IMG/VR virus record: IMGVR_UViG_3300036861_000552
Location: 1 to 44,656 of that record
Source of the DNA: a virus
Direction: 5' to 3' (one strand)
DNA: 44,656 nucleotides
Shown here: positions 2,631 to 44,656 of the stretch, one piece after another
Layout of the letters: the number at the start of each line of letters is the position of its first letter
How positions within the stretch are numbered: position 1 is the first letter of the stretch
Translations under genes and position numbers: made by a program
Notes under the pieces: generated by a model
Databases searched by the model: none
Seen by the model: the letters and a program-made list of their open reading frames with translations, nothing else
What the model was told of the DNA's origin: nothing

Positions 2631-2869
2631 AAACCACAGCACGCCCGCTCCGTTCACTGGAGCAACGACTATCGGCCGGCAAACAACGCCGTCGCGCGAA
2701 GCGAATCGCACGTAGGATTGAACGTGATCCAGCCAAGCTCCACGCGTTCAAGTTCATGTGCGCTCAGATGTCTCAGTTCCACCAAGAGGTTCGCAGGTTT
2801 AAGTTGAGCCGATGGATCAAGTGGTTGGGTCGGCCCGAGGGGGACGAAAGCCCGAACCCCGGCCTATGA
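2627..2869 (+). CDS. hypothetical basic protein
   Basis: Frame of ORF 2609..2869 trimmed to GTG 2627 (GTGA overlap with upstream stop) after GGAAGGAGGAG; Arg/Lys-rich. Confidence 0.5.
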   Translation: MKTTARPLRSLEQRLSAGKQRRRAKRIARRIERDPAKLHAFKFMCAQMSQFHQEVRRFKLSRWIKWLGRPEGDESPNPGL

Positions 2870-3180
2870 GCATCGACAAAACATCAGCGGCGTGGGCTGC
2901 GGGGTTCTTTGACGGTGAAGGATACGTAGGATGTATCCGTGGGAGACTTCGAGTTGTCGTTGGCCAGAAGGACAGGGAAGTGCTTGATAGGTTTCATGCA
3001 ATCGTAGGTGAAGGCGGTGTGCTGGGGCCATACTTTCCCAAAGGGAAGCAGATTTACCGCTGGCAAGTAGGTGGATATTCAGCTACGAGAAGGGTTTACG
3101 AGATTCTTCGTCTCAACTTGGGGAGGATCAAGGTCGTTCAGTTTTGGAACGCATTCGATAAGTTCAGGGAGGTAAAATGA
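2866..3180 (+). CDS. free-standing single-motif LAGLIDADG homing endonuclease
   Basis: MSIDKTSAAWAAGFFDGEGYVG carries the LAGLIDADG-type helix motif (AGFFDGEG) near the N-terminus; about 104 aa as in homodimeric I-CreI-type enzymes; ATGA overlap with the upstream gene; visibly AT-richer than its flanks. Confidence 0.75.
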   Translation: MSIDKTSAAWAAGFFDGEGYVGCIRGRLRVVVGQKDREVLDRFHAIVGEGGVLGPYFPKGKQIYRWQVGGYSATRRVYEILRLNLGRIKVVQFWNAFDKFREVK

Positions 3181-9132: not shown

Positions 9133-9405
9133 AAAGAAAATCCAAGAGGAGAACGCTTCCTTTTACAGGAACAGAAAACTCCTCATGGACCTACTCAAGG
9201 ATGAGCCTTGCATGGACTGCGGGAAGAAGTTCCCACCGAGTGCATGGATTGGGATCATGTTCGAGGGCGGAAGAAAAGACCCGCAAGCAGAATAAAGTAC
9301 AGCATCAAACAGGTGGAACAAGAGTTGGCGAAATGCGACCTGGTGTGCGCCAACTGTCATCGTACCAGGACTAAGCAAAGGAGAACACGAAATGCTGGAC
9401 AATGA
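9110..9405 (+). pseudogene. HNH homing endonuclease, frameshifted copy (paralog of 13384..13680 and 16471..16881)
   Basis: ORF 8999..9295 supplies ...LLMDLLKDEPCMDCGKKFPP and ORF 9208..9405 supplies ECMDWDHVRGRKK...LVCANCHRTRT. Against paralog ccacctgagtgc, this copy reads ccaccgagtgc (one base missing at 9237/9238). TTG 9110 follows GAAGGAAG. Confidence 0.7.
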
Positions 9406-11086: not shown

Positions 11087-13391
11087 AAGCGTCCTCTCTG
11101 AGGCGTATGAGAGATGGATTTTCAAGGAACTCTCGAAGGTCGGTCTCTCGGCTGCTGACTGCTCACAGATTCATATCGTACCGAAGGAGCTTGGATACGA
11201 AGACAAGCTCACGGCCGCGATGATCTCGGAGAACCTCCCGGCATTCTACAAGAAACTGCGTGAGGCATCGGCCCGGGTAGTCCTCGTGTTCGGGGGACCG
11301 GCCACGAAGGCTGTGCTCGGTCGGTCAGATAGGTTAGAGTTCCTGCGCGGATATGTGTGGGAGCCGGCTGATCTCTCGGTGGTCTCATGGAAGGAGACCG
11401 GAGTTATCGGCGCATACCTTCGGGACAACAAGAAGAAGGGCATCAAGGCTGGGGATGACAAGCTCGGGAAGGTGCTCAAGTCCCAACTCGTAGAGTTGCC
11501 GGATCGTTCTAAGGTCATCTGCACGTTCAGCCCACAGTTTCTCGTGAAGAACGGCTTCAAGCCTCTCGCCGCGTTCGCTGCCGATCTTCGGCGTGCGAAG
11601 ACGATGGCTGATGGTTTCATGTTCCTTCGCGACGACCAGATTTTCGATGCGGAGCGCAACTTCCTAACGGAACCGAAGTGGGATTGGATTCCTCAAGACG
11701 ATATGTTCGCTTTCGACATCGAGGTTCGTGCGACCCCCACGGGGTATTCGCGTGATCCCGAGTTGATCTCCCTCTCAGACGGCGTGGTGACGATGTGCCT
11801 GCCGTGGAATGAGCAGACCCGTGACTACTGCAAGCACTACCTTGGCAACGCGAAGTATACGAAGTGGGCGCACAACTCGATCTTCGATACGGCCCGGCTC
11901 AGGGATGCCGGCTGCACGGTCATCGACCCTATCTTCGATTCGATGCTTGCTGCTCAGTTGCTTACCCCGGACCTTGGGAAAGCACTCGGTAAGGTGGCGA
12001 GTATCTACCTCCATCTCAAGGAATGGAAGTCCAAGAGTGACAGCGACCCCATGTTCTACTCGGCAAAGGACGCGTTTGTCACGGTGCTCCTCGCGAGGGA
12101 ACTCGACAAGAAGCTGAAGAAGCTCGGCATGCACCACCTGTTCACGAACATCTGCGTCGCGTTGCCGGTACTGCTCGACATGAACGAGCGGGGGATCAAG
12201 GTCGATCTATCGCGCGCTGCCATCTGGGCGCAGGAGTTGAAGGACAAGCTCACGGACCTGAGCGAGAAGTGGATTCAGATGACGGCTCCGATCGCTGCTG
12301 CACACAGCGAGAAGGGCGTCTCACCGGGCTCCACGCGCCAGTTGCAGAAGATGTTCTATCAGTGGTTCGGCTGCGCGCCTCGCCGCAACCGCAGTGACAG
12401 CGTGACTCTCGATGCTGAGGCGCTGTTCGATCTGAAGACGATCTACCCAGAGCACGCGGAACTTGTCACGTTGCTCTTGGAGTACCGAGAGGTCTCGAAG
12501 CAGTACGGCACGTATGCCAAGGTGCTCGCCGGCCTCTTCAACGACGACGCCGACCGCGTTCATCCTGAGTACATCTCAGGTGGGATGGAAGGCGCATCAG
12601 CCCCGGGACGTAAGGGGCACGCAACTACGGGGAGGCTTGGTGTCAGCAGACCGAACATTCAGAACCAGACGCCTGAGGCTCGGCGTATGTACATTCCTGA
12701 TTCGCCTGATCATTGCTTTATTGAACTGGATTTCTCCCAAGCCGAACTCCGGGTCATTGCAGCGTTGTCAGGCGACGCTGAGCTCACGGCAGCATTGGCC
12801 GGAGGCGACATTCACTCTCAAACTGCAACTCGTTTGGGAGTTCCCCGAAAGCTGGCAAAGAACGCCATCTATGCCTCCTGCTATCTCGGAGGTCCTAAGA
12901 CTATTCAATCGATGCTGAAGAAGGAAGGCATCATCGTCGGCGTCCCGGAGATCAAGAAGGTGCAGGCGCTCCTTCGCAGGCTGTACGCACGGATGTTCGC
13001 GTGGCAGACGACTGTGGTGGAAGAGATGCTCGGCCAGGGATACCTCATCAATCCCTTCGGCCGCGTGAGGTTCTTCTACGGCAAGGACAAGGACGGCCCT
13101 GAAGCAGCAGATTTCAATCCCCAAAGTTCGGTGGCCGATATTACCTGGTACCTTCTGCCCGAGCTTCAGGAGCGAGCGGGTGAATTCGGCGGCCGCGTGG
13201 TCTCGCAGGTTCACGACTCGTTCCTTTTCTGTGTGCCGAAGGATCAGGTCGAGCGGGCCACACGAGTCTTCACGGACATCATGCAGCGCGAGTTCGTCCA
13301 GGTTGCGCCTGGGTTCCACATCCCTGTTGATGCAAAGGTAGGCAAGCCCGGCCAGTCGTGGGGAGAGTTGGAGAAGGAAGTCCATGTATAG
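11061..13391 (+). CDS. family-A DNA polymerase with N-terminal UDG-like domain and 3'-5' exonuclease
   Basis: Exo motifs FAFDIEV, HNSIFDTARL, YSAKDAF; Pol motif A DFSQAELRVIAALSGD, motif B RKLAKNAIYASCYLGG, motif C QVHDSFLF; N-terminal LLVFES...VLVFGGPATKAVLG...CTFSPQFL resembles a family-4 UDG fold; start trimmed to ATG 11061. Confidence 0.93.
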   Translation: MTKALLVFESVLSEAYERWIFKELSKVGLSAADCSQIHIVPKELGYEDKLTAAMISENLPAFYKKLREASARVVLVFGGPATKAVLGRSDRLEFLRGYVWEPADLSVVSWKETGVIGAYLRDNKKKGIKAGDDKLGKVLKSQLVELPDRSKVICTFSPQFLVKNGFKPLAAFAADLRRAKTMADGFMFLRDDQIFDAERNFLTEPKWDWIPQDDMFAFDIEVRATPTGYSRDPELISLSDGVVTMCLPWNEQTRDYCKHYLGNAKYTKWAHNSIFDTARLRDAGCTVIDPIFDSMLAAQLLTPDLGKALGKVASIYLHLKEWKSKSDSDPMFYSAKDAFVTVLLARELDKKLKKLGMHHLFTNICVALPVLLDMNERGIKVDLSRAAIWAQELKDKLTDLSEKWIQMTAPIAAAHSEKGVSPGSTRQLQKMFYQWFGCAPRRNRSDSVTLDAEALFDLKTIYPEHAELVTLLLEYREVSKQYGTYAKVLAGLFNDDADRVHPEYISGGMEGASAPGRKGHATTGRLGVSRPNIQNQTPEARRMYIPDSPDHCFIELDFSQAELRVIAALSGDAELTAALAGGDIHSQTATRLGVPRKLAKNAIYASCYLGGPKTIQSMLKKEGIIVGVPEIKKVQALLRRLYARMFAWQTTVVEEMLGQGYLINPFGRVRFFYGKDKDGPEAADFNPQSSVADITWYLLPELQERAGEFGGRVVSQVHDSFLFCVPKDQVERATRVFTDIMQREFVQVAPGFHIPVDAKVGKPGQSWGELEKEVHV

Positions 13392-13680
13392 GCGGGGACA
13401 GCCGAAGAGCAGCTACAACCAAGAATTTAAGGTGCTTCGGCGGCTGACTGTAGACTTGTTGAAGGACGATCCTTGTGCTGATTGTGGGAAGCGGTTTCCA
13501 CCTGAGTGCATGGACTTCGACCACGTCCGAGGCAGGAAGACTTTCAAAATTTCCAGTGGTGTGGTGGAGCATCGCCCAACAGATGCCCTCGAAAAGGAGA
13601 TCAATAAGTGTCAACTGGTGTGCGCCAATTGTCATCGTATGAGAACACGCAGACGGGCAAAAAGCCGAAGGCGTATCTGA
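13384..13680 (+). CDS. HNH homing endonuclease (intact paralog)
   Basis: DPCADCGKRFPPECMDFDHVRGRK...LVCANCHRMRT; overlaps the DNA polymerase stop by 8 nt and the next gene by 73 nt. Confidence 0.85.
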   Translation: MYRRGQPKSSYNQEFKVLRRLTVDLLKDDPCADCGKRFPPECMDFDHVRGRKTFKISSGVVEHRPTDALEKEINKCQLVCANCHRMRTRRRAKSRRRI

Positions 13681-14342
13681 GTGGGCCGATGAGCGGTATT
13701 CCCGAGTATAACGCCCCGGCCTTTGCTTACTTCGCTGAGAAGTACCGTGCTCGGGGCTGGGAGATCGTAAGCCCCCCTGAACTGGATGCAGATGCGAATG
13801 ACTTCGCCTACGAGTCGTGCATCAAGCGGGACATGCGGGTACTGGTGGACCAGGGCATTGACGTGGTTCTGATGTTGCCAAAGTGGCAGAAGTCAAAGGG
13901 AGCGAACCTCGAAAAGCTCCTCGCCGAACTCACGGGTATCCCTTGCTTCGACGCCGAGACCGAGGAAGTGGTCACGGAGTTGGTGCGAGAAAAGGTAGTC
14001 CCCCCGAGTCGGCCTCAGCAGACCATGCCGAAGGACTCCGCTGGGCGTAAAGCAGTCCCGCTGTGCAGTGGGGTGCTCGACTACTTCCCTGCGGCTCTCG
14101 CTGCCGTCGCCAAGATTTCGAAGCACGGAAACGACAAGCACAATCCTGGGGAACCCCTGCATTGGGCTCGGGGGAAATCCACGGATCACGCGGACTGCAT
14201 TGCTCGGCATCTTGTGGACCGTGGGATCATCGATGCTGATACCGGCCTATCTCACACCGTTGAGATTGCATGGCGCGCTTTGGCCCTGCTGCAAGAGGAA
14301 GAGGAATCCCGGGGTGCTCCGCGAGCGAGAGGAGCTTACTGA
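13608..14342 (+). CDS. fusion: DUF4406 (nucleoside 2-deoxyribosyltransferase-like) domain + dATP/dGTP diphosphohydrolase-like domain
   Basis: KAYLSGPMSGIPEYNAPAF...DVVLMLPKWQKSKGA (DUF4406 pattern) then KDSAGRKAVPL...ALAAVAKISKHGNDKHN...HADCIARHLVD...DTGLSHTVEIAWRALALL (DUF5664-like pattern); start 13608, 13620 or 13629. Confidence 0.65.
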   Translation: MSTGVRQLSSYENTQTGKKPKAYLSGPMSGIPEYNAPAFAYFAEKYRARGWEIVSPPELDADANDFAYESCIKRDMRVLVDQGIDVVLMLPKWQKSKGANLEKLLAELTGIPCFDAETEEVVTELVREKVVPPSRPQQTMPKDSAGRKAVPLCSGVLDYFPAALAAVAKISKHGNDKHNPGEPLHWARGKSTDHADCIARHLVDRGIIDADTGLSHTVEIAWRALALLQEEEESRGAPRARGAY

Positions 14343-14587: not shown

Positions 14588-14999
14588 TGATCGTCGTCGT
14601 CGGTACCGCATCAACAACATGCGCGCAGGCAAGTGTCGGTGGTGTCCGAATCCCATCAACGACACGCATCGAGGCGTGTGCCTCCGGCATCATGTGTTCT
14701 ACATGCTCAGGAAGAAGGGATTGACGAAGGGCGTGCTCCCGCCTCCAAAGAAGCGAAAGCGCGAGGCCCTCATCGCCTACATCCAGGGACGCGAGACCGC
14801 GATTCGCAATGGATTCCTCACCCCCGGGACGGATGAACAACGCCTTAAAGATGTGATCGAGACACGTCTGCGCCTCGGGATCACCTGGGGTGGCGTGCGT
14901 GGTGGGGACAAGATGGCCGAGATCGTGAGACTCATTGACCTCAGTGCTATGAGGAAAAGGGAGACCAATGGACAGCAACAACCTCAAGCAACTGCGTGA
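14577..14999 (+). CDS. hypothetical basic protein
   Basis: Frame of ORF 14412..14999 trimmed to ATG 14577; CRWCPNP...H..CLRHH Cys/His cluster. Confidence 0.55.
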   Translation: MVVDDRRRRYRINNMRAGKCRWCPNPINDTHRGVCLRHHVFYMLRKKGLTKGVLPPPKKRKREALIAYIQGRETAIRNGFLTPGTDEQRLKDVIETRLRLGITWGGVRGGDKMAEIVRLIDLSAMRKRETNGQQQPQATA

Positions 15000-15411
15000 T
15001 GAACTGATGCGGGATGAAGGCGTCCGCCTTGATGCCTACCAGGATACTGTTGGCCTCTGGACGATCGGTGTCGGGCATCTTCTTGGCAAAGAGAAGCGCA
15101 TGACTGAGATCACTCAGTTCGAAGCCGAAGCTCTCCTTGATGCGGATATCTGGGTGGCACAGGCATTGGCGAAGGTCTATGCCCCTACTGTGGTGAACAA
15201 CAACGCGCTGTACGGACACTCTCGCGAGCGAGTTCTGGTGAACATGGCATTCAACTTGGGAACTCGGCTGGGGGGATTCAAGAGGTTCCTCGCGGCCGTC
15301 AACGCTCACGATTGGACTACGGCTGCCAGGGAGATGATGGACTCGAAGTGGGCGAAGCAGGTAGGCGCTCGTGCAGATCGACTCCACAACATGATCCTCA
15401 TTGTAGACTGA
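14968..15411 (+). CDS. T4-type lysozyme (GH24 endolysin)
   Basis: LMRDEGVRLDAYQDTVGLWTIGVGH carries the catalytic E...D...T triad context of phage T4 lysozyme; no signal peptide visible. Confidence 0.9.
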   Translation: MDSNNLKQLRDELMRDEGVRLDAYQDTVGLWTIGVGHLLGKEKRMTEITQFEAEALLDADIWVAQALAKVYAPTVVNNNALYGHSRERVLVNMAFNLGTRLGGFKRFLAAVNAHDWTTAAREMMDSKWAKQVGARADRLHNMILIVD

Positions 15412-16481
15412 TGATCTGGGATGCCGTTGTCCTCGGAGCCGGATTGTACGGCTGCAAGGTGGCCCTAGAGTTGGCTGCCCTGCGCTTGAAGGTCGTTCTC
15501 CTCGATCCCAATCCCATGTTTGAAGGAGCTACACGGGTGAATCAGCAGAGGATTCACGCTGGATTTCATTATCCTCGGAGCATTACCACTGCCGAAACGG
15601 CTGCCCGGAACTACTTTAGATTCCTGATCGACCACGCCGAAGCAGTGGATGGCAACGACCGCCATCTCTACTGCATTGCGGCGGACTCGAAGGTCGGCCC
15701 GGAGGAGTATGAGCGGGTCCTCGATAGCATTGGTGCTGACTACCGCCGTGTGTACACCCCCTCGTACTTCGCGCCGAACATGATCGCGCAGTGCTACGAG
15801 ACGCATGAGAAGTCCTTCAACATCGACAAGCTCCGCGCGCTGTTGAACCAGCAACTCAAAATCGCCGGCGTCGAGCGCGTGACCGCCCCCGGGTCGATCG
15901 TTGACCTCGACGATGATCACGTGGTCGTGCAGGCGGGTAACAGCCTCTTCGAAGCGCGGTACGTCTTCAACTGCACCTACGCCAAGATCGACACGATCGT
16001 GCCGATCCGCACCAAGCTCGTGAAGGAGCACGTCGAGGTTCCGATCATCCGTATCCCCGGCCCGCATCCCTTCATCCGCGAAGACGTGACGGTCATGGAT
16101 GGGCCGTACTTCTCGGTGATGAGTTACCCGCCTCGCGTGGACTTCTGGGCCTCGGCCCTGACCCATGTGAAGCACGGACGGCACCATGTGTGGTCTCCCC
16201 CCGAGCCTGAGCCTGAGTGGAATCCCGAGGCGTCCAGCAAGGTGAGCCAGATGCTCTTAGACGCGGCCCGGTACATTCCCATGATGGCTCAGGCGAAGCA
16301 CCTGTCGAGCATGTACACGACGCGCGTGTTGCTCGCGGAAAGCAGTGATGACGATGGCCGGCCGGTGCTCGTTGAGTATGCAGAGGAATCCCCACGGATC
16401 ATTAGCGTGCTTGGAAGTAAATTTACTTCTTGCTACGACATCATAGACTTCATCCGTGTGTGGGCGCAGCATGCCATATAA
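15411..16481 (+). CDS. FAD-dependent oxidoreductase (DAO-like)
   Basis: N-terminal dinucleotide fold DAVVLGAGLYGCKVALELA...VVLLD; GATRVNQQRIHAGFHYP; ATG overlaps the lysozyme stop by 1 nt (TGATG). Confidence 0.75.
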   Translation: MIWDAVVLGAGLYGCKVALELAALRLKVVLLDPNPMFEGATRVNQQRIHAGFHYPRSITTAETAARNYFRFLIDHAEAVDGNDRHLYCIAADSKVGPEEYERVLDSIGADYRRVYTPSYFAPNMIAQCYETHEKSFNIDKLRALLNQQLKIAGVERVTAPGSIVDLDDDHVVVQAGNSLFEARYVFNCTYAKIDTIVPIRTKLVKEHVEVPIIRIPGPHPFIREDVTVMDGPYFSVMSYPPRVDFWASALTHVKHGRHHVWSPPEPEPEWNPEASSKVSQMLLDAARYIPMMAQAKHLSSMYTTRVLLAESSDDDGRPVLVEYAEESPRIISVLGSKFTSCYDIIDFIRVWAQHAI

Positions 16482-16881
16482 AGACATATTCCAGCGCCGG
16501 GCATCGGGCCTTCGTTCGTATTATAAACATAGGACGAAACGTCTGGACTACGCTGAACGTAATCGAGAACGTGAGCGAGCGAGGACTCGACAATGGCGCG
16601 CCGCCAATAGGCTATATGGGAACGCCGCACAACGCATGAGAGTATGGGAGAGAATGTTTTGGATAGGAAAAGTAAAAGCCGATCCTTGTGTAGATTGTGG
16701 GAGAAAGTATCCACCCTACGTGATGCATTTCGATCATATACGAGGTAAGAAGAAGTTCAACATTGCCCTCGGATATCAGAGAACGGCTAAAGATGTCAAT
16801 GAAGAGATCGCGAAATGTGAACTTGTCTGTGCGAATTGCCACGCGGAGAGAACATGGAAAAGGCGTCAGGCATCAAAGTAG
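16471..16881 (+). CDS. HNH homing endonuclease (third paralog, longer N-terminus)
   Basis: DPCVDCGRKYPPYVMHFDHIRGKKK...LVCANCHAERT; AT-rich relative to flanks; overlaps both neighbours. Confidence 0.85.
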   Translation: MPYKDIFQRRASGLRSYYKHRTKRLDYAERNRERERARTRQWRAANRLYGNAAQRMRVWERMFWIGKVKADPCVDCGRKYPPYVMHFDHIRGKKKFNIALGYQRTAKDVNEEIAKCELVCANCHAERTWKRRQASK

Positions 16882-17534
16882 TTGGAAGGCGGGCGCTGAT
16901 GGGAAGGGGATTTTTAGGTTCTTCTCTGGATAAAAAGGGGCGCTGGACCGACCGCTATAACAGGTCAAAATGTGACCTTTGGGGGTCGTATGATTTGATC
17001 GTCGTGGCGGCGCCGAGAGCGGACAAGTGGTTCGCGAACCAGCATCCAGACATAGATCGTGCTGCGGTCGAAGAGATCATCACTGCTCTCGCCCGGGCCG
17101 ATTCGAGGCGCGTGGTGCTGCTCTCCTCTATCGATGCTGGTGGGGCGCACCCTTACGGACAGAATCGCGCGCGATTGGAGGAGGGCATGCCGAAGCATGC
17201 GTCCATCATCCGGCTTCCCGCCCTCTTCGGAGATGGGCTCAAGAAGAATAGCCTTTTCGACCTGCTCAACAATCAGCCCGTTGCGAACAATGTCTTCCAC
17301 TGGTACCACGTGGCCCGTCTATGGGAGGACGTGCGAAAGGCGCAGCCCGGGCTCTGGTGCCCGTACTCTGCGCCTCTATCGATGTGGGAAATTGCGGAGC
17401 GACTCGGCCTCACCCATCTGGTCACTAAGGATTGCGATCGGAAACTGGACTACAATGAAAAAGGCCCCTACACCATGTCTAGTGTAGAGGTCCTGGAGGA
17501 CATCGTTCGATGGGCGACATCCGCCTCAGCGTAA
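16854..17534 (+). CDS. Rossmann-fold SDR / RmlD-like sugar reductase-epimerase homolog
   Basis: GRGFLGS dinucleotide motif; DLIVVAAPRA...VVLLSSIDAGG...YGQNRARLE parallels RmlD-type DVIVNAAA...YSTDYVF...YGxTK, with R where the YxxxK lysine is expected; start 16854 or 16899. Confidence 0.55.
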   Translation: MEKASGIKVVGRRALMGRGFLGSSLDKKGRWTDRYNRSKCDLWGSYDLIVVAAPRADKWFANQHPDIDRAAVEEIITALARADSRRVVLLSSIDAGGAHPYGQNRARLEEGMPKHASIIRLPALFGDGLKKNSLFDLLNNQPVANNVFHWYHVARLWEDVRKAQPGLWCPYSAPLSMWEIAERLGLTHLVTKDCDRKLDYNEKGPYTMSSVEVLEDIVRWATSASA

Positions 17535-18376
17535 TCGTTCCAACATGCGGTCGCAGCACGCTAGAGAACACGGTGCAATCCGTGATGAACCAGATGCGTA
17601 TACACGACGAACTCATCATTGTTGGAAGTAGAGTACCTGAACAATTTCCCAGCGACATGGGACAGTTGAAGTGGGGCTACGACAACAGACCCGGTTTGTT
17701 CCAATTCCTTCATCGGGACAACAAGGGATGTCGCGCGGATAACAGCACCATGAGCGGACCTAAGAATCAGACTCATGGTCCACAGGGCACGGAGAGCGGC
17801 GCAGTCGAGCGGGACATGGGAGATGCGGTCGCCACCGGCACCCACCTGCTCCACATCGACGACGACGACATCTTCGTCAAGGATGCGTTCGAGAAGGTGC
17901 GGGCCGCGATCGCCAAGGACCCCAATCGGGTCCTGATATTCCGCATGGAGTACGGAATCAAGAATCAATGGATCAGCCCGTACTCGATTGACATTGACGG
18001 GGTGCCAACGCTCGGCGTCCAGGAGCGCGTGGCGCTGGCAGCATTCGGCGGGATGGAGATGGTGTTCCCGCGCGTGAGCCCGAACCCGAGATGGGAGCAA
18101 GAGGGAGAGATGCGCAACTCGTGCGAGGACTACTTCAACACGAAGCGGTATTTGGAGGCGCTGGGCACTGAGCCCGTGTGGCCTCGCAAGACGATCGGGA
18201 TTGTCCGACCGACCCGAGAGCAGATTCTCTTCCACACGGGTCGGGACACCAATCCCTTGTACGCACCACAGCCGGCATGGAATGGAGTTCAACAGCGACG
18301 AATGAAGTGTGGCGAGAGCCCACTTCGACCGGAAGTGTTGGCTGCGATGGCTCGAAGGAGAGCAGGAAAGAAATAG
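17510..18376 (+). CDS. family-2 (GT-A fold) glycosyltransferase
   Basis: LSVIVPTCGRSTLENTVQSVMNQ N-terminus and HIDDDDIF DxD motif. Confidence 0.85.
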   Translation: MGDIRLSVIVPTCGRSTLENTVQSVMNQMRIHDELIIVGSRVPEQFPSDMGQLKWGYDNRPGLFQFLHRDNKGCRADNSTMSGPKNQTHGPQGTESGAVERDMGDAVATGTHLLHIDDDDIFVKDAFEKVRAAIAKDPNRVLIFRMEYGIKNQWISPYSIDIDGVPTLGVQERVALAAFGGMEMVFPRVSPNPRWEQEGEMRNSCEDYFNTKRYLEALGTEPVWPRKTIGIVRPTREQILFHTGRDTNPLYAPQPAWNGVQQRRMKCGESPLRPEVLAAMARRRAGKK

Positions 18377-18456
18377 GGGGCGTGGGCTGGTTCGATTCCG
18401 GCTGGATGGTGCATGGGGGTTCGAATCCCTCCTTGGTCTGGGGACAGCACGCCCCG
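18377..18456 (+). other. tRNA-like element: 8-bp closing helix enclosing two T-arm-like hairpins; not a canonical tRNA
   Basis: GGGGCGTG (18377-84) pairs with CACGCCCC (18448-55). Inside are GCTGG-TTCGATT-CCGGC (18386-18402) and GGGGG-TTCGAAT-CCCTC (18415-18431), each a 5-bp stem with a 7-nt T-loop-consensus loop. No D arm or anticodon arm can be drawn. Confidence 0.4.
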
Positions 18457-18464
18457 AAAACATA

Positions 18465-18508
18465 AAGGCCCGACCCCAATGTTCAGGGATCGGGCCTTGT
18501 TCATTTTT
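18465..18508. terminator. bidirectional rho-independent terminator at the convergence of the two arms
   Basis: 9-bp perfect stem AAGGCCCGA/TCGGGCCTT plus inner CCC/GGG; followed by GTTCATTTTTAT on + and by TATGTTTTCG on -. Confidence 0.75.
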
Positions 18509-18519
18509 ATTGAACAGCT

Positions 18520-18927
18520 TTACTTCGTGGCGACCTTGTTCAGTTTCTCCACGGTGCGCATACCACCGAGCCCGAGCATGCCAACAAGTAGAGTGGTCAG
18601 CAATTCAGTCTGCATGATAGGGAGATCGACAGGCCGCTTGAGTAGTGCGCTGCCCCACACGACCAGTGGGCCAAGAACAAGTTGGAATGCGAGCGCGCTT
18701 CCACAGACCCAACCAATGAACGGTCGCCAGCCTGAGACGAACAGGTTTGAGGACGCAGCCTCGATCTCGTTGATCTTGTTCTGGCCGGCAATGACCGCGA
18801 GGTCGCCGCTCTGCTCCAACTCTTGCAGCTTGAGTAGAGCTTCGGCCTTCGCCTTCGGGTCGGGGATCAGCTTGTCGATCAGCTTCGTGCCGAGATCGAG
18901 GATCGAACCAATGACAGGGAGAGGCAT
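18520..18927 (-). CDS. 3-TM holin of the gene-transfer-agent type
   Basis: LGTKLIDKLIPDPKAKAE...GQNKINEIEAASSNLFVSGWRPFIGWVCGSALAF matches the GTA_holin_3TM pattern (iN..eA...F.sGWRP.iGW); last gene of the - arm. Confidence 0.8.
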   Translation of the reverse strand: MPLPVIGSILDLGTKLIDKLIPDPKAKAEALLKLQELEQSGDLAVIAGQNKINEIEAASSNLFVSGWRPFIGWVCGSALAFQLVLGPLVVWGSALLKRPVDLPIMQTELLTTLLVGMLGLGGMRTVEKLNKVATK

Positions 18928-30666: not shown

Positions 30667-31400
30667 TACCTATCTCCGCGAGGCCAGAAGTCGAACGGGC
30701 CTTGAGGCGTCTGCCTCTGGGCGAGATCGTAAGGAGTGACAAATCCTTCCCATTGCGCCTGCCCACCCTCGTTCGTGTCATCGAGGATGGCCTTCTGATA
30801 TCGACCGGCATCCGCCCGAGTGCCGTAGACATCACGGATCAGAATCGGAAGACGGGGATTCGAAGAATCGTGCGCCTGAAGAAGGTGGATTCGAGCACAG
30901 TCGAGGAACGTGTACAGATACTTCAGAGGCACATCGATCGGATCAGCAGCCCCGTTGAAGGCCCTGTAGTAACGAAGTAGGGCGGTATCATCTCGGGCCG
31001 GAGGTCGGAAGAGTTGAACCTTCTGGACTTCCGAAGCAGGATCGAAGTCTGCATCATCATCGATGATGGTGTAAATCTCAGGATCGCCCTGAACCGTCTG
31101 ATCCGAAGTCACTGCATCGATGAGTTCCTGCGGAACGTACCGCAGAGGATGCTTCAGTGTACCCGTGAACCTCATCGAGAGGGGTTTGCGGAACGGTTTG
31201 GTGCCGGCCGTCAGTGCATAGCGGCTGGTTCCCGCCACAACCGTGATCGTTTGTGTAACGAGAAGGAAGTGCCAGTCATGGTCCGTCGCCCACATCTCAG
31301 CCGTAGCCTTGAGTGAGTCCAGGGCCATAGCGGTCTTCGCCGTGATGTTGGCCCCTCCCATCACTTGAGCTACGTAGGTTTGTGCTTGGGCTGCGGTCAT
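30666..31400 (-). CDS. head-tail adaptor / tail tubular A-like protein
   Basis: 244-aa ORF between the capsid block and the large tail protein; call by position and size only. Confidence 0.45.
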   Translation of the reverse strand: MTAAQAQTYVAQVMGGANITAKTAMALDSLKATAEMWATDHDWHFLLVTQTITVVAGTSRYALTAGTKPFRKPLSMRFTGTLKHPLRYVPQELIDAVTSDQTVQGDPEIYTIIDDDADFDPASEVQKVQLFRPPARDDTALLRYYRAFNGAADPIDVPLKYLYTFLDCARIHLLQAHDSSNPRLPILIRDVYGTRADAGRYQKAILDDTNEGGQAQWEGFVTPYDLAQRQTPQGPFDFWPRGDR

Positions 31401-32662
31401 TTTGCGAGTAGAGCCTCACGGCGCTGCTTGGTCTTGAGGGATTCGTAGAACTCGTAGAGCCCCACGACCGTCTTCTCAGCAGCACGGTTTGCCCGGACCC
31501 ACTCCTGTCCTCGATCAGCGAGGATGCGGCGAAGTTCCGAGTTCTTGATGAGACCGAGGAGCTTCTCTTTGAAGTCCTGCGGAGTGTCGTAGAGGAGGCC
31601 GGTCTTTCCGTCCTCGATTTCCTTGTAGGGGCCGACGTTCGCGGCCAGCACAGCCTCGGGCCGAGGGCCAACCGTTCCCTCGTACCACTTGATCGCCGAC
31701 TTCGCCCGGTTGAACGGGGAGTCGATCAGCGGACAGAGGTTGATGTCGGCATCCATGCACGAGCGATAGAGCTTGTAGCTCGAATACTCGACCCACTCGT
31801 GGAACTCGATCTGCTCCGGCCGCTTCATCAGCTTGCGGAGCATGGTCGGCATACAGCCCCAGAAGATGTACTTGACCTTCGGGTTCTCATTCGCGATGTC
31901 AGCCATCACCTGAATCAGCGGCATCCAGTCTTCGAAGTGACTGGTCGAGCCCTGCCAGAGGATGCGAACTTCATCGTGGGGCGCGAGATTCGGGAAGAAG
32001 TAATCAGATTCCAGAACGCTGTTCGGGTAGACGTAGACATCCTTGATGCCTTGATCCCGGTAGCATTGCGCGAGAGCTTCAGTTGTCACTGTCACGCCAG
32101 CAGCGAGTCGGGCGATGTCATAGTGCTGACCGATCGTCTTCAGGTTGCGCTCAATGTCCCAGACCTGATCATTGATTCCTCGGGTCTTCTTGTCCACCCA
32201 GAGGTCCTTGGTCGTTCCGTTCGGACCCGGCCACACGAGCTTCGTAGGGTCTTCATCCGTCCCGGGGGTGAGTACCTCACCTTCCCAATTTCGGATGCCC
32301 CAATAGGCATAGGATTCGTTGAGCGGATGAACCCACTCGACCGCATCATCTACGTCATTGACGAAGATGGGCGGGAGTTTGATGGTGCCCTGGCGAATGA
32401 ACGGCTTCATGTCAGCGAACTGCTGCGCATGCCAGAGACCATCATCTCCGGTGAGGTTCCACCCGAGGCAAAGGTCTGAGCCGAACATCGTGGCCGTAGC
32501 GAGTTCGCGGTCACCTTTCCCATTGTCGGGATAGATGTTCGCGAGCCCGGTGCGGTAGAGACTCTTCAGAGGAACTGCGATGCGGTAGTAGCTCTGAGCG
32601 GTCGGGCGCTCGAAGTTCGAGAAGGCATAGACTCCGAAGTTCGAGCCATTGGGCTTAGACAT
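31397..32662 (-). CDS. GT-B fold (group-1 type) glycosyltransferase inside the structural module
   Basis: C-terminal half ILWQGSTSH...NRAKSAIKWYEGTVGPRPEAVLAANVGPYKEIEDGKTGLLYD resembles the GT1/GT4 donor-binding E-x7-E region. Confidence 0.65.
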   Translation of the reverse strand: MSKPNGSNFGVYAFSNFERPTAQSYYRIAVPLKSLYRTGLANIYPDNGKGDRELATATMFGSDLCLGWNLTGDDGLWHAQQFADMKPFIRQGTIKLPPIFVNDVDDAVEWVHPLNESYAYWGIRNWEGEVLTPGTDEDPTKLVWPGPNGTTKDLWVDKKTRGINDQVWDIERNLKTIGQHYDIARLAAGVTVTTEALAQCYRDQGIKDVYVYPNSVLESDYFFPNLAPHDEVRILWQGSTSHFEDWMPLIQVMADIANENPKVKYIFWGCMPTMLRKLMKRPEQIEFHEWVEYSSYKLYRSCMDADINLCPLIDSPFNRAKSAIKWYEGTVGPRPEAVLAANVGPYKEIEDGKTGLLYDTPQDFKEKLLGLIKNSELRRILADRGQEWVRANRAAEKTVVGLYEFYESLKTKQRREALLAK

Positions 32663-42955: not shown

Positions 42956-43699
42956 TCAGGAGCTTGAAACTGCTGGGTCGCTGTTTTCGCCGCCTTCTCC
43001 CGCTCCTGAGCCAGCCAGAGGAGGAGAAGTTGCATTCTCTGGCGCAATGAGAGCTTTTTCTTCGGCACTCTCGCTTGATCCACGATGCTCGTCGCTATTC
43101 TGCGTCTGATCTTGCGCAGACTGCTCATTCCAGACCCTTTCCCACGCTTTGCGTGCAATCCGCTTCCCTACGGCCTCGAGCAATAGGCTCAGACGGTGAA
43201 TCTTGTCATCATCGGTGAGTGGAGGACCCGGGCCGAGCCTGTCTCGGGCGCCGATCTGTGCATCGAGCCGCGCGAGGGCCTGGATTGCGGCGATTTCCAA
43301 CTGGAAGTTGCCCGTGATCGCTGCGTTGCGCGCGACCGTGGACAATCTCTGGCGCTGTTCTTCGGCCGTAAGTGGGACGCCACTACCGTTAACCACTGTA
43401 TCAGCGACTTTCTGGCGTGCCGCTATCTCTTTTTCGAGTTCAGCCACCCCGGAGGTCGCCAAGATCGGCCCGGGAGCAGTGTCCTCAGGCAGTTCGCCCT
43501 CGATCATCGGCGAGGAGCGGTCGTAGAAGGACCTCTGGATCACCCCGGTTTGCACCAGGAAGGACCGGGCCGCGCTCACGGTGCCGATCGAGACGTTGAG
43601 GGCCTCGACAACCTGCGCGTTCGTGGCGCTGGGGTTGATTCGGAGGTACTCTTTCGCCTGCTGGAGGGCACCTTTCCGGCGAGGACTCTTAGGAGCCAC
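42956..43699 (-). CDS. HTH DNA-binding protein, candidate small terminase subunit
   Basis: First gene of the - arm; N-terminal LQQAKEYLRINPSATNAQVVEALNVSIGTVSAARSFL is HTH-like, followed by a helical oligomerisation-like core and an acidic tail. Confidence 0.4.
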   Translation of the reverse strand: MAPKSPRRKGALQQAKEYLRINPSATNAQVVEALNVSIGTVSAARSFLVQTGVIQRSFYDRSSPMIEGELPEDTAPGPILATSGVAELEKEIAARQKVADTVVNGSGVPLTAEEQRQRLSTVARNAAITGNFQLEIAAIQALARLDAQIGARDRLGPGPPLTDDDKIHRLSLLLEAVGKRIARKAWERVWNEQSAQDQTQNSDEHRGSSESAEEKALIAPENATSPPLAGSGAGEGGENSDPAVSSS

Positions 43700-44440: not shown

Positions 44441-44649
44441 ATACCGTGTGGACGCTAGAACACATGACGGCATTCCTAAAGCATGCGGGAGTGTGCCTAG
44501 AGTGTGGGCGCAAAACGATCAACGGCCGTTGCTTCGAATGTGTGCCGGCCACAACGGCAGACATTGCCGCGATTGTAGAAGAGGATAAGGCAACGCGCTG
44601 GCCAGTGATCCAAAAAGAACTTGACGCCAAAGACGGGGAGATAGTATAA
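44437..44649 (+). CDS. small Cys4 (CxxC...CxxC) protein
   Basis: Frame of ORF 44416..44649 trimmed to ATG 44437 (ATGA overlap, GGAGGG 5 nt upstream); CLECGRKTINGRCFEC zinc-ribbon-like; its 3' half lies in the terminal repeat. Confidence 0.6.
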   Translation: MNTVWTLEHMTAFLKHAGVCLECGRKTINGRCFECVPATTADIAAIVEEDKATRWPVIQKELDAKDGEIV

Positions 44650-44656
44650 TGATCGG
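44530..44656. repeat. terminal direct repeat, copy B (identical to 1..127)
   Basis: See copy A. Confidence 0.95.

Follow-up and report, generated by a model that had tools for sequence, protein, structure and literature searches.

A conserved trio of flavoprotein, SDR-like and glycosyltransferase genes next to the endolysin gene of an SU10-like phage as a candidate glycosylation module

Results

Gene layout of the block

The DNA considered here, referred to as the window, is IMG/VR virus record IMGVR_UViG_3300036861_000552 over its full length of 44,656 nucleotides, and our subject is a block of four consecutive plus-strand genes at 15411-18376. These genes encode a flavin adenine dinucleotide (FAD)-dependent oxidoreductase, an HNH protein, a protein related to the short-chain dehydrogenases/reductases (SDR) and a family-2 glycosyltransferase (GT2). 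A preliminary description of this DNA had read the block as a set of sugar-modification genes; the four gene identities, their strand and all the motifs that it quoted were borne out. An exact direct overlap of 127 bp between positions 1-127 and 44530-44656 indicates a circular assembly, so that the window represents a complete phage genome of ~44.5 kb. In this genome, a plus-strand replication/lysis arm converges on a minus-strand structural arm that encodes SU10-type capsid, portal and adaptor proteins.

The block adjoins the endolysin gene (14968-15411, plus strand), whose stop codon is overlapped by the ATG of the flavoprotein gene (15411..16481, plus strand; 356 residues) in the arrangement TGATG. 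The HNH gene (16456..16881, plus strand; 141 residues) overlaps the stop of the flavoprotein gene by 26 nt and the start of the SDR-like gene (16854..17534, plus strand; 226 residues) by 28 nt. Good ribosome-binding sites precede both the SDR-like gene (GGAGAG upstream of its ATG, with an alternative TTG start at 16836) and the GT2 gene (17510..18376, plus strand; 288 residues), and a promoter scan found no sigma-70-like match on the plus strand across the block region. Because of the gene overlap with the endolysin, the ribosome-binding sites and the lack of a promoter match in that scan, the block appears to share its transcript with the genes for lysis and replication. This gene arrangement establishes the expression context of the module: the module closes the replication/lysis arm, and its co-transcription with the endolysin gene implies that it acts during lytic growth. 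Apart from the HNH gene, the block does not differ from the genome average in G+C content.

Downstream of the block, a 13-bp GC-rich hairpin (18465..18498) lies between the converging GT2 and holin genes, the latter at 18520-18927 on the minus strand. A T-run follows the hairpin on both strands, and it is a probable bidirectional terminator that ends the operon holding the block. At the junction of the two arms, ARAGORN calls a plus-strand tRNA-Ser(CGA) at 18359..18440, overlapping the GT2 stop codon. This element has a clear T-arm and 3' acceptor half and contains GGGGGTTCGAATCCCTCC; because the Rfam tRNA model gives no match here, whether with the gathering threshold or with E<=1, we regard it as a tRNA-Ser-like fragment, which may be the attP remnant of a temperate ancestor.

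A DAO-family flavoprotein coupled to an RmlD-like protein

The flavoprotein matches the Pfam family DAO (PF01266) over residues 4-322 with E=1.1e-13 and 51.9 bits against a cut-off of 27.9, and it carries the dinucleotide-binding motif VVLGAGLYG. In our Pfam scans, which took in the called genes and the main open reading frames (ORFs) of both arms, that is, all but a few small ORFs, this protein gave DAO and other Rossmann-type FAD families only and no FAD_binding_4. Of its 303 homologues, those most similar to it, with 59-73% identity, are encoded on related phage contigs. Invariant throughout the family are GxGxxG, the stretch N44-Q45-x-R47-x-H49-x-G51-x-H53-Y54 together with R56, D315-x-R317-P318 and G335-x-K337. 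A family profile compared with the PDB matched GlpO (4x9m) and the uncharacterised 3dme over the N-terminal Rossmann region only, and the best NCBIfam neighbour is the type-2 glycerol-3-phosphate oxidase. We therefore class the protein as a FAD-dependent dehydrogenase/oxidase of the GlpD/GlpO/LhgO-like type. The model of a fused homologue (P0014, 59% identical to the flavoprotein of the window; predicted local distance difference test (pLDDT) 91, predicted template-modelling (TM) score 0.68) matches sarcosine/glycine oxidase, GlpD and opine dehydrogenase with target-normalised TM scores of 0.55-0.72, so that a two-domain DAO/GR2 fold is predicted for the flavoprotein from this homologue. The N44-Q45-x-R47-x-H49-x-G51 stretch resembles the x-I-H-x-G stretch of glycerol-3-phosphate and 2-hydroxyglutarate dehydrogenases, and G335-x-K337 is likewise similar to its counterpart in GlpD/GlpO and 2-hydroxyglutarate oxidases. 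Such a likeness would favour oxidation of a secondary alcohol near an anionic group, and a 2-hydroxyl adjoining a glycosyl phosphate would fit as the oxidised position.

The SDR-like protein of the window itself found no match in Pfam, PHROG or NCBIfam. It has 95 homologues, several of which, at 31-40% identity, carry PF01370/PF04321, and the family comprises 3421 clusters at 50% identity. The family profile matches the RmlD structure 8g22 (E=3.6e-4); in alignments to RmlD 8g22, Cap5F and 1vl0, YGQNR occupies the place of the catalytic Tyr-x3-Lys, with its Tyr matched to Tyr and its Arg to Lys, and the conserved Ser91 aligns with the catalytic S/T of RmlD. The protein carries GRGFLGS, in which the family alignment shows no variation at G17, G19 and G22, along with Ser91, Tyr101-x3-Arg105 and the motif RLPALFGDGLKKN. 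Across 30 homologues, GxxGxxG, Ser91, Tyr101 and Arg105 are invariant or nearly so, which argues that Tyr-x3-Arg is a trait of the family and not a sign of decay. The protein is thus assigned as a divergent extended SDR (RmlD/epimerase-like) with NAD(P) binding, and it is predicted to be the keto-reductase partner of the flavoprotein.

Two kinds of evidence tie these proteins together. In ten homologues of the flavoprotein, 587-607 residues long (P0014, P0015, P0018, P0019 and P0021-P0026), the C-terminal half is SDR-like. In addition, the flavoprotein gene has an SDR-like gene at a distance of 6 kb or less in 65 of the best 80 bacterial loci and in 68 of 80 viral loci. Fusion and synteny identify the two proteins, at the level of sequence comparison, as one functional couple, and they strengthen the earlier proposal of an oxidase/reductase couple that feeds a transferase.

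The window encodes the two proteins separately, divided precisely where the fused relatives have their linker, and the HNH gene occupies the same spot. The HNH protein matches HNH families of PHROG (E=6.5e-25) and shows a CxxC...HxD...CxxCH pattern. It is one of three paralogous HNH genes on the plus strand of the replication arm (9208-9405, 13384-13680 and 16456-16881), and it is 47% identical to the 13384-13680 copy. Among eight contigs that hold the flavoprotein, SDR-like and GT2 genes together, only the window and L002 have an HNH gene between the first two; in the remaining six (L168, L209-L212 and the P0004 contig), it is missing and the two genes abut or overlap, and the fused relatives likewise lack it. 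Its sporadic presence at this site and its paralogues elsewhere in the genome mark it as a mobile insertion; the preliminary description had already called it inserted. We regard it as a free-standing homing-endonuclease gene, apparently selfish and inserted at what is the domain linker of the fused relatives, with no predicted part in the chemistry. Several HNH copies, at differing sites, are also seen in related phage contigs.

A soluble GT-A glycosyltransferase

The fourth gene product matches PF00535 with 31.2 bits against a cut-off of 23.3. R15, DDDD117-120 and D207 are invariant in 20 homologues, and E206 and Y208 are conserved among the closer homologues only. Its AlphaFold model (pLDDT 80) has a GT-A fold, for which Foldseek returns GT-A matches at E ~1e-9. 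The best of these are WrtF, TarP, TarS, SpsA and RmlT, with query-normalised TM scores of 0.45-0.50 that amount to a generic match, and sequence identity to TarP, TarS and RmlT is 12-18%. The C-terminal tail is strongly basic (isoelectric point 11.7, compared with 5.7 for the core), and two relatives add a CxxC...CxxC extension. The flavoprotein, the SDR-like protein and the GT2 protein all lack transmembrane segments; the maximum KD19 is <=1.65 and corresponds to a Rossmann strand. NCBIfam offered no informative name for any of the three, nor for the proteins of the bacterial operons described below.

Short relatives of the GT2 protein (~180-220 residues; L171-L208, for example L175 2285-9822) are encoded inside phage structural modules, 3' of tail-completion genes. 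Their neighbours include portal, prohead protease and collagen-repeat fibre genes as well as TylF-like O-methyltransferases and B12-radical-SAM enzymes, and a Glyco_trans_1_2 GT-B-like gene adjoins the short relative in 16 of 38 loci. These loci look like candidate virion-glycosylation cassettes. A phmmer search with an approximate E. coli ThyA query found no thymidylate-synthase-like genes near the short relatives, and tblastn of one short relative against phage records gave no match.

The trio in related phages

A gene-neighbourhood search of the kind that the preliminary description had proposed found the trio of GT2, flavoprotein and SDR-like genes between endolysin and holin in L002, L168, L209, L210, L211, L212 and the P0004 contig, in addition to the window. 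It occurs in two gene orders, FAD-SDR-GT2 or GT2-FAD-SDR. The synteny in at least eight related contigs and the fusion of flavoprotein and SDR-like domains in relatives place the association beyond chance. In L168, L209, L210 and L211, the trio is followed by the convergent holin gene, and in L212 by small, unassigned minus-strand genes. The P0004 contig, from a relative with 69% identity, carries an excisionase-like gene and an integrase gene directly 3' of GT2; it is the only one of the seven relatives extending that far in which an integrase follows the trio. Larger phages, of 42-64 kb, have two to four GT2 genes around a fused FAD-SDR gene, and one of these GT2 genes is orthologous to that of the window (39% identity in L004 and 35% in L006).

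When the three proteins were compared by tblastn with 50,697 phage records, the sole match was MT839812, and the module was found in no cultured phage among these records. MT839812 is a 4-kb faecal contig without annotation that holds a set of the bacterial type, in the order SDR-TIM-GT2-FAD. The flavoprotein homologues and the GTA-type holin of the window point to an alphaproteobacterial host, and the SU10-like phages with this module probably infect Alphaproteobacteria.

The same pair in bacteria, other phages and giant viruses

Relatives of the flavoprotein were found in at least 594 bacterial genomes in a scan of GTDB species representatives, with one genome per species. Within the best 80 bacterial loci, an SDR-like gene occurs in 65, a xylose-isomerase-like TIM barrel in 64, a GT2 resembling polyprenyl-phosphate-hexose synthases in 65 and a second GT2 in 64. 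The operon runs from a GT2 gene through a DAO-type flavoprotein, an SDR with YxxxR and the xylose-isomerase-like TIM barrel, which resembles keto-sugar epimerases, to an SMR/EamA-like small membrane protein, the polyprenyl-phosphate-hexose-synthase-like GT2 and a large membrane protein (for example, L117 8928-17123 in Pseudomonas and L003 8306-14537; also L088-L167). Its hosts include Pseudomonas, Bordetella, Paraburkholderia, Azoarcus, Erythrobacter, cyanobacteria, Acidobacteriota and Patescibacteria. The Pseudomonas operon adds the SMR/EamA-like small membrane protein and a protein of 1057 residues, and a weakly PMT_2-like GT-C is found in the Sphingomonas operon. A synthase, a small transporter and a large membrane protein make up the layout of periplasmic glycan decoration on a lipid carrier (PMC11127046). 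Homology of the phage GT2 to the polyprenyl-phosphate-synthase-like GT2 of the bacterial operon was sought and not found.

Among 80 viral loci, 68 have an SDR-like gene and 65 a TIM barrel. SDR and TIM matches fall in one ORF in 22 of the 80, chiefly on giant-virus contigs. One such SDR-TIM fusion, of 532 residues beside a flavoprotein gene (L047 11048-12646), was confirmed by Pfam, and in GVMAG contigs (L020, L023, L024, L026 and others) the flavoprotein gene lies next to a protein of ~490-530 residues. In a phage of 30% GC (L084), FAD-SDR-TIM genes sit beside a GDP-mannose 4,6-dehydratase, a GDP-fucose-synthase-like SDR and three glycosyltransferases. The consistent association with glycan genes argues that the pair of flavoprotein and SDR-like protein is a sugar-tailoring cassette. 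Judged by gene content, the window lineage is a minimal variant without the TIM barrel, as would be expected for oxidation and reduction at a single carbon. We found no publication that describes this gene combination in phages, bacteria or giant viruses, and likewise no curated model.

A search of BFVD also matched the FAD region of the P0014 model to a 680-residue Marseillevirus 'glycosyl transferase', which hints that this protein may be a fusion of a FAD domain with a glycosyltransferase.

A GT-B glycosyltransferase in the structural arm

A second glycosyltransferase of the window, a GT-B enzyme of 421 residues (31397..32662, minus strand), is encoded between the major capsid and adaptor genes. 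It matches Glycos_transf_1 of Pfam (E=6.5e-5) and a glycosyltransferase family of PHROG (E=8.6e-24). Its place in the order portal - major capsid protein - small gene - GT-B - adaptor is fixed across SU10-like contigs whose identity ranges from 94% to 28% (L213-L227), which suggests a virion-directed or assembly-linked role. GT-B homologues also lie 4-6 kb from sets of flavoprotein, SDR and TIM-barrel genes in unrelated low-GC phages, and it is possible that the GT-B enzyme is the partner of the block in making one glycan.

Discussion

Weighing these results, we see about an even chance that the block is a conserved phage glycosylation module in which a sugar is oxidised, reduced and transferred, with a virion protein as acceptor. 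According to this proposal, the DAO-family flavoprotein would oxidise a secondary sugar hydroxyl to the ketone, the sugar probably being phosphate-linked, either as a nucleotide sugar or as a lipid- or polymer-bound glycosyl phosphate. The RmlD-like SDR, with its Ser-Tyr-Arg triad, would then reduce the ketone with NAD(P)H to yield the epimer or an otherwise re-configured sugar. The soluble GT-A enzyme, with DDDD as its putative metal/donor site, would move the sugar onto the acceptor in the cytoplasm, and the scheme leaves the order of tailoring and transfer free. The acceptor would most likely be a virion protein, modified together with the GT-B enzyme from the capsid/neck gene block. The sugar substrate, assumed in the preliminary description, gains from the association with glycosyltransferases, TIM barrels and the GDP-mannose dehydratase and GDP-fucose synthase genes, the support being one of association throughout.

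Virion proteins are favoured as acceptor because of the conserved place of the GT-B gene between the genes for capsid and adaptor, and also because of the lytic expression, the occurrence of the pair in giant viruses and the position of the short GT2 relatives in structural modules. We accordingly rank the candidate acceptors with the virion first, the host envelope second and DNA third; DNA is placed last because no synthase of a hydroxylated base was detected. A broader and more tentative proposal, to which we give distinctly less than even weight, is that GlpD-like flavoproteins and Arg-type RmlD-like SDRs constitute an unrecognised two-enzyme system of sugar epimerisation or tailoring in bacteria, phages and giant viruses, with or without a TIM-barrel isomerase, and as such a non-homologous counterpart of the DprE1/DprE2 pair discussed below. 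In this phage lineage, the system would be reduced to oxidase, reductase and GT-A transferase and would attach an unusual sugar to the virion or, with lower likelihood, to a DNA base.

Several observations weigh against a virion-directed sugar module. By structure, the flavoprotein is closest to amine oxidases and glycerol-3-phosphate dehydrogenases and not to sugar oxidases, and we know of no characterised enzyme in either this FAD family or this SDR family, so that we infer the substrate from gene neighbours only. The SDR-like protein of the window matches no Pfam model, and its Tyr-x3-Arg differs from the canonical SDR triad (Ser/Thr-Tyr-Lys). The capsid sequence bears no mark of glycosylation. 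The link between block and GT-B gene is circumstantial: flavoprotein/SDR genes lie within 10 kb of the GT-B gene in 1 of 83 GT-B loci. The related loci examined span at most 21 kb, and trio and GT-B gene are 13 kb apart in the window. No homology was detectable between the GT-B enzyme of the window and the GT-B-like proteins whose genes adjoin those of the short GT2 relatives. Furthermore, the bacterial homologues sit in operons that resemble envelope-glycan operons, and the P0004 contig, from a close relative, is temperate, with the module adjoining its integrase gene.

The last two observations also speak for modification of the host envelope, which we consider the leading alternative, although an unlikely one. 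Here the enzymes would alter an O-antigen, a capsule or another glycopolymer during its assembly at the cytoplasmic face, and the change would block superinfection or the re-adsorption of progeny, or bring about serotype conversion in temperate relatives. In bacteria, the genes found with the flavoprotein and SDR homologues encode a polyprenyl-phosphate-sugar-synthase-like GT2, a small membrane protein of SMR/EamA type and either a large membrane protein or a PMT_2-like GT-C, a layout known from systems that decorate glycans in the periplasm (PMC11127046). Structurally, the GT2 protein is most like cytoplasmic glycosyltransferases of cell-wall polymers, including the prophage enzyme TarP, and the excisionase-like and integrase genes of the 69%-identical relative follow GT2 at the spot where the window has its tRNA-like fragment. 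However, Pfam detected no integrase in the scanned ORFs of the complete window genome, and among the seven relatives that extend past the trio an integrase follows it in the P0004 contig alone. The preliminary description had taken the missing integrase to argue against lysogenic conversion; the absence holds for the window, but the argument is weakened by the integrase of the P0004 relative and by the tRNA-like fragment. Envelope modification also agrees poorly with the translational coupling of the genes to the endolysin, which is not that of an independently expressed moron, and with a phage module that has no lipid-carrier synthase, flippase, GT-C or membrane segments. Moreover, the flavoprotein and SDR occur together in giant viruses of eukaryotes, where there is no bacterial envelope to modify.

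Hypermodification of the phage DNA is improbable. In that case, the GT-A enzyme would glycosylate a DNA base and the flavoprotein and SDR would be the partner 'epimerase' that supplies the nucleotide sugar, as in systems that build glycans on 5-hydroxymethylcytosine (5hmC). The preliminary description had dismissed DNA glycosylation, and in this the lack of a detected hydroxylated-base enzyme stands on its side; the GT2 protein nevertheless holds an R...DDD...EDY/F set (R15, D117-120, E206-D207-Y208) and has TarP among its best PDB matches. Phage GT-A glycosyltransferases that act on DNA have R...DDD...EDY/F motifs and a TarP-like fold, and many need a co-encoded epimerase (10.1101/2023.12.21.572611). 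The very basic tail of the GT2 protein and the CxxC...CxxC extension of two relatives also speak for this reading, and the replication arm that holds the block encodes nearby PolA and a fusion of DUF4406 with a dATP/dGTP-diphosphohydrolase domain that could deplete a canonical nucleotide. Against this stands the matter of the acceptor: in the scanned ORFs, many of which match no family, Pfam detected no thymidylate-synthase homologue (as had been stated before), no TET/JBP-type dioxygenase and no cytosine methyltransferase, so that no hydroxylated base would be available, and the described routes of DNA glycosylation all require one (PMC13326640). In addition, the short GT2 relatives lie in structural modules and not beside base-modifying genes. 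The R/DxD/ED motifs, for their part, are general features of GT-A enzymes.

That the block has no sugar pathway at all, the flavoprotein being an amine, amino-acid, glycerol-phosphate or hydroxy-acid oxidase next to a glycosyltransferase by coincidence, is the least probable reading, because the close structural and sequence neighbours that act on amines, glycerol-3-phosphate and opines and the JGI label 'glycine/D-amino acid oxidase-like deaminating enzyme' are set against an RmlD-like SDR fused or adjacent in hundreds of genomes, the constant co-occurrence of glycosyltransferases, TIM-barrel keto-sugar enzymes and GDP-sugar enzymes, and a GT2-FAD-SDR trio that survives changes in gene order.

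The closest functional parallel for an oxidation and reduction upstream of transfer, which the preliminary description had already drawn, is the DprE1/DprE2 pair, that is, the mycobacterial decaprenylphosphoryl-ribose 2'-epimerase and its Gram-negative arabinofuranose homologues. DprE1 is a VAO/FAD_binding_4 enzyme, and DprE2 is a classical SDR with YxxxK. In this pair, the flavoenzyme turns the hydroxyl next to a glycosyl phosphate into a ketone, which the nicotinamide-dependent SDR reduces to the epimer (PMC11127046). The two-protein logic upstream of glycosyl transfer is the same in the window, and the setting of the bacterial relatives, with a lipid-carrier-synthase-like GT2 and large membrane proteins, is similar too. 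The parallel therefore holds as a functional analogy, whereas the families differ: the flavoprotein of the window is DAO/GlpD-like, with PF01266 and DAO-fold matches and no FAD_binding_4, and the reductase is an extended RmlD-like SDR in which Arg takes the place of Lys (YGQNR, YxxxR). Moreover, the block has no membrane protein, the genome Pfam scans found no phosphoribosyltransferase or GT-C family, and most relatives of the window pair add a TIM-barrel enzyme, which DprE1/DprE2 lack.

Other known systems share parts of this arrangement. TarP, TarS and RmlT come from Gram-positive bacteria. Like the GT2 protein, they are soluble cytoplasmic GT-A enzymes that act on a polymer acceptor, and TarP is prophage-encoded, but they have no associated oxidase or reductase. 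Virus-encoded glycosyltransferases and sugar-tailoring enzymes act during lytic growth in the glycosylation of mycobacteriophage capsids and tails, of chloroviruses and of mimivirus capsids and fibrils. The window resembles these viruses in having a GT-B gene inside its structural block, a likeness drawn from description, and the GDP-mannose dehydratase and GDP-fucose-synthase-like genes of L084 parallel the chlorovirus Gmd/GMER pair. To our knowledge, no glycosylated virion protein has been reported for SU10-like phages. The phage 5hmC-glycan systems, as published, have in common with the window a small soluble GT-A enzyme with its motifs and TarP-like fold, a neighbouring enzyme that changes, or in the window would change, the sugar configuration, and nearby replication genes. 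They are defined, however, by a neighbouring 5-methylpyrimidine dioxygenase (5mYOX/TET-JBP), with or without a C5-methyltransferase, or by a thymidylate-synthase homologue (10.1101/2023.12.21.572611). Unlike them, the window has no detected hydroxyl-making enzyme, and their epimerase is a single enzyme and not a couple of flavoprotein and SDR. With gtrABC-type, three-component decoration, the module shares the position beside an integrase in one relative and the layout of the bacterial operon (PMC11127046), and it would also share the modification of host surface glycans by a phage if the envelope is its target; it differs from gtrABC in consisting of three soluble proteins, as the window has neither a GtrA-like flippase nor a membrane-anchored GtrB-like synthase, GT-C or integrase. 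The module is thus neither a gtrABC cassette nor a demonstrated DNA-glycosylation cluster. It belongs with the known virus-encoded genes for glycan synthesis and tailoring, and of wider interest is the large, unstudied pair of flavoprotein and SDR that it brings to light.

Glycans that viruses make themselves alter their recognition by hosts, immune systems and defence nucleases, and the enzymes involved are useful for glycoengineering. If the pair carries out a two-step epimerisation with flavin and NAD(P)H, the strategy of DprE1/DprE2 would have arisen a second time independently, and a common bacterial operon that has no annotation would be accounted for. As the phage version is minimal, a fused homologue such as P0014 offers a convenient entry to the chemistry. 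The module also suggests that the SU10-like phages carrying it glycosylate their virions or use glycans in some other way, for which we know of no earlier report.

Other features of the genome

At the DNA level, the window shares with phage records just one match of 230 bp, in an unrelated gene. The plus-strand gene at 13608-14342 in the replication arm encodes DUF4406 (nucleoside 2-deoxyribosyltransferase-like) fused to the N-terminal domain of a dATP/dGTP diphosphohydrolase, and a DUF6899 gene is next to it. Relatives carry in its place an NT5C 5'-nucleotidase together with the same diphosphohydrolase domain, and the gene looks like one for manipulation of the nucleotide pool. The only candidate regulator seen in the window is a protein of 247 residues (42956-43699, minus strand) with a weak match to the winged-helix family HTH_24 (E=3e-4). 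A small plus-strand ORF at 2812-3180 has a borderline match to LAGLIDADG_3 (E=1.9e-4, just under the Pfam cut-off) and may represent a second type of homing endonuclease.

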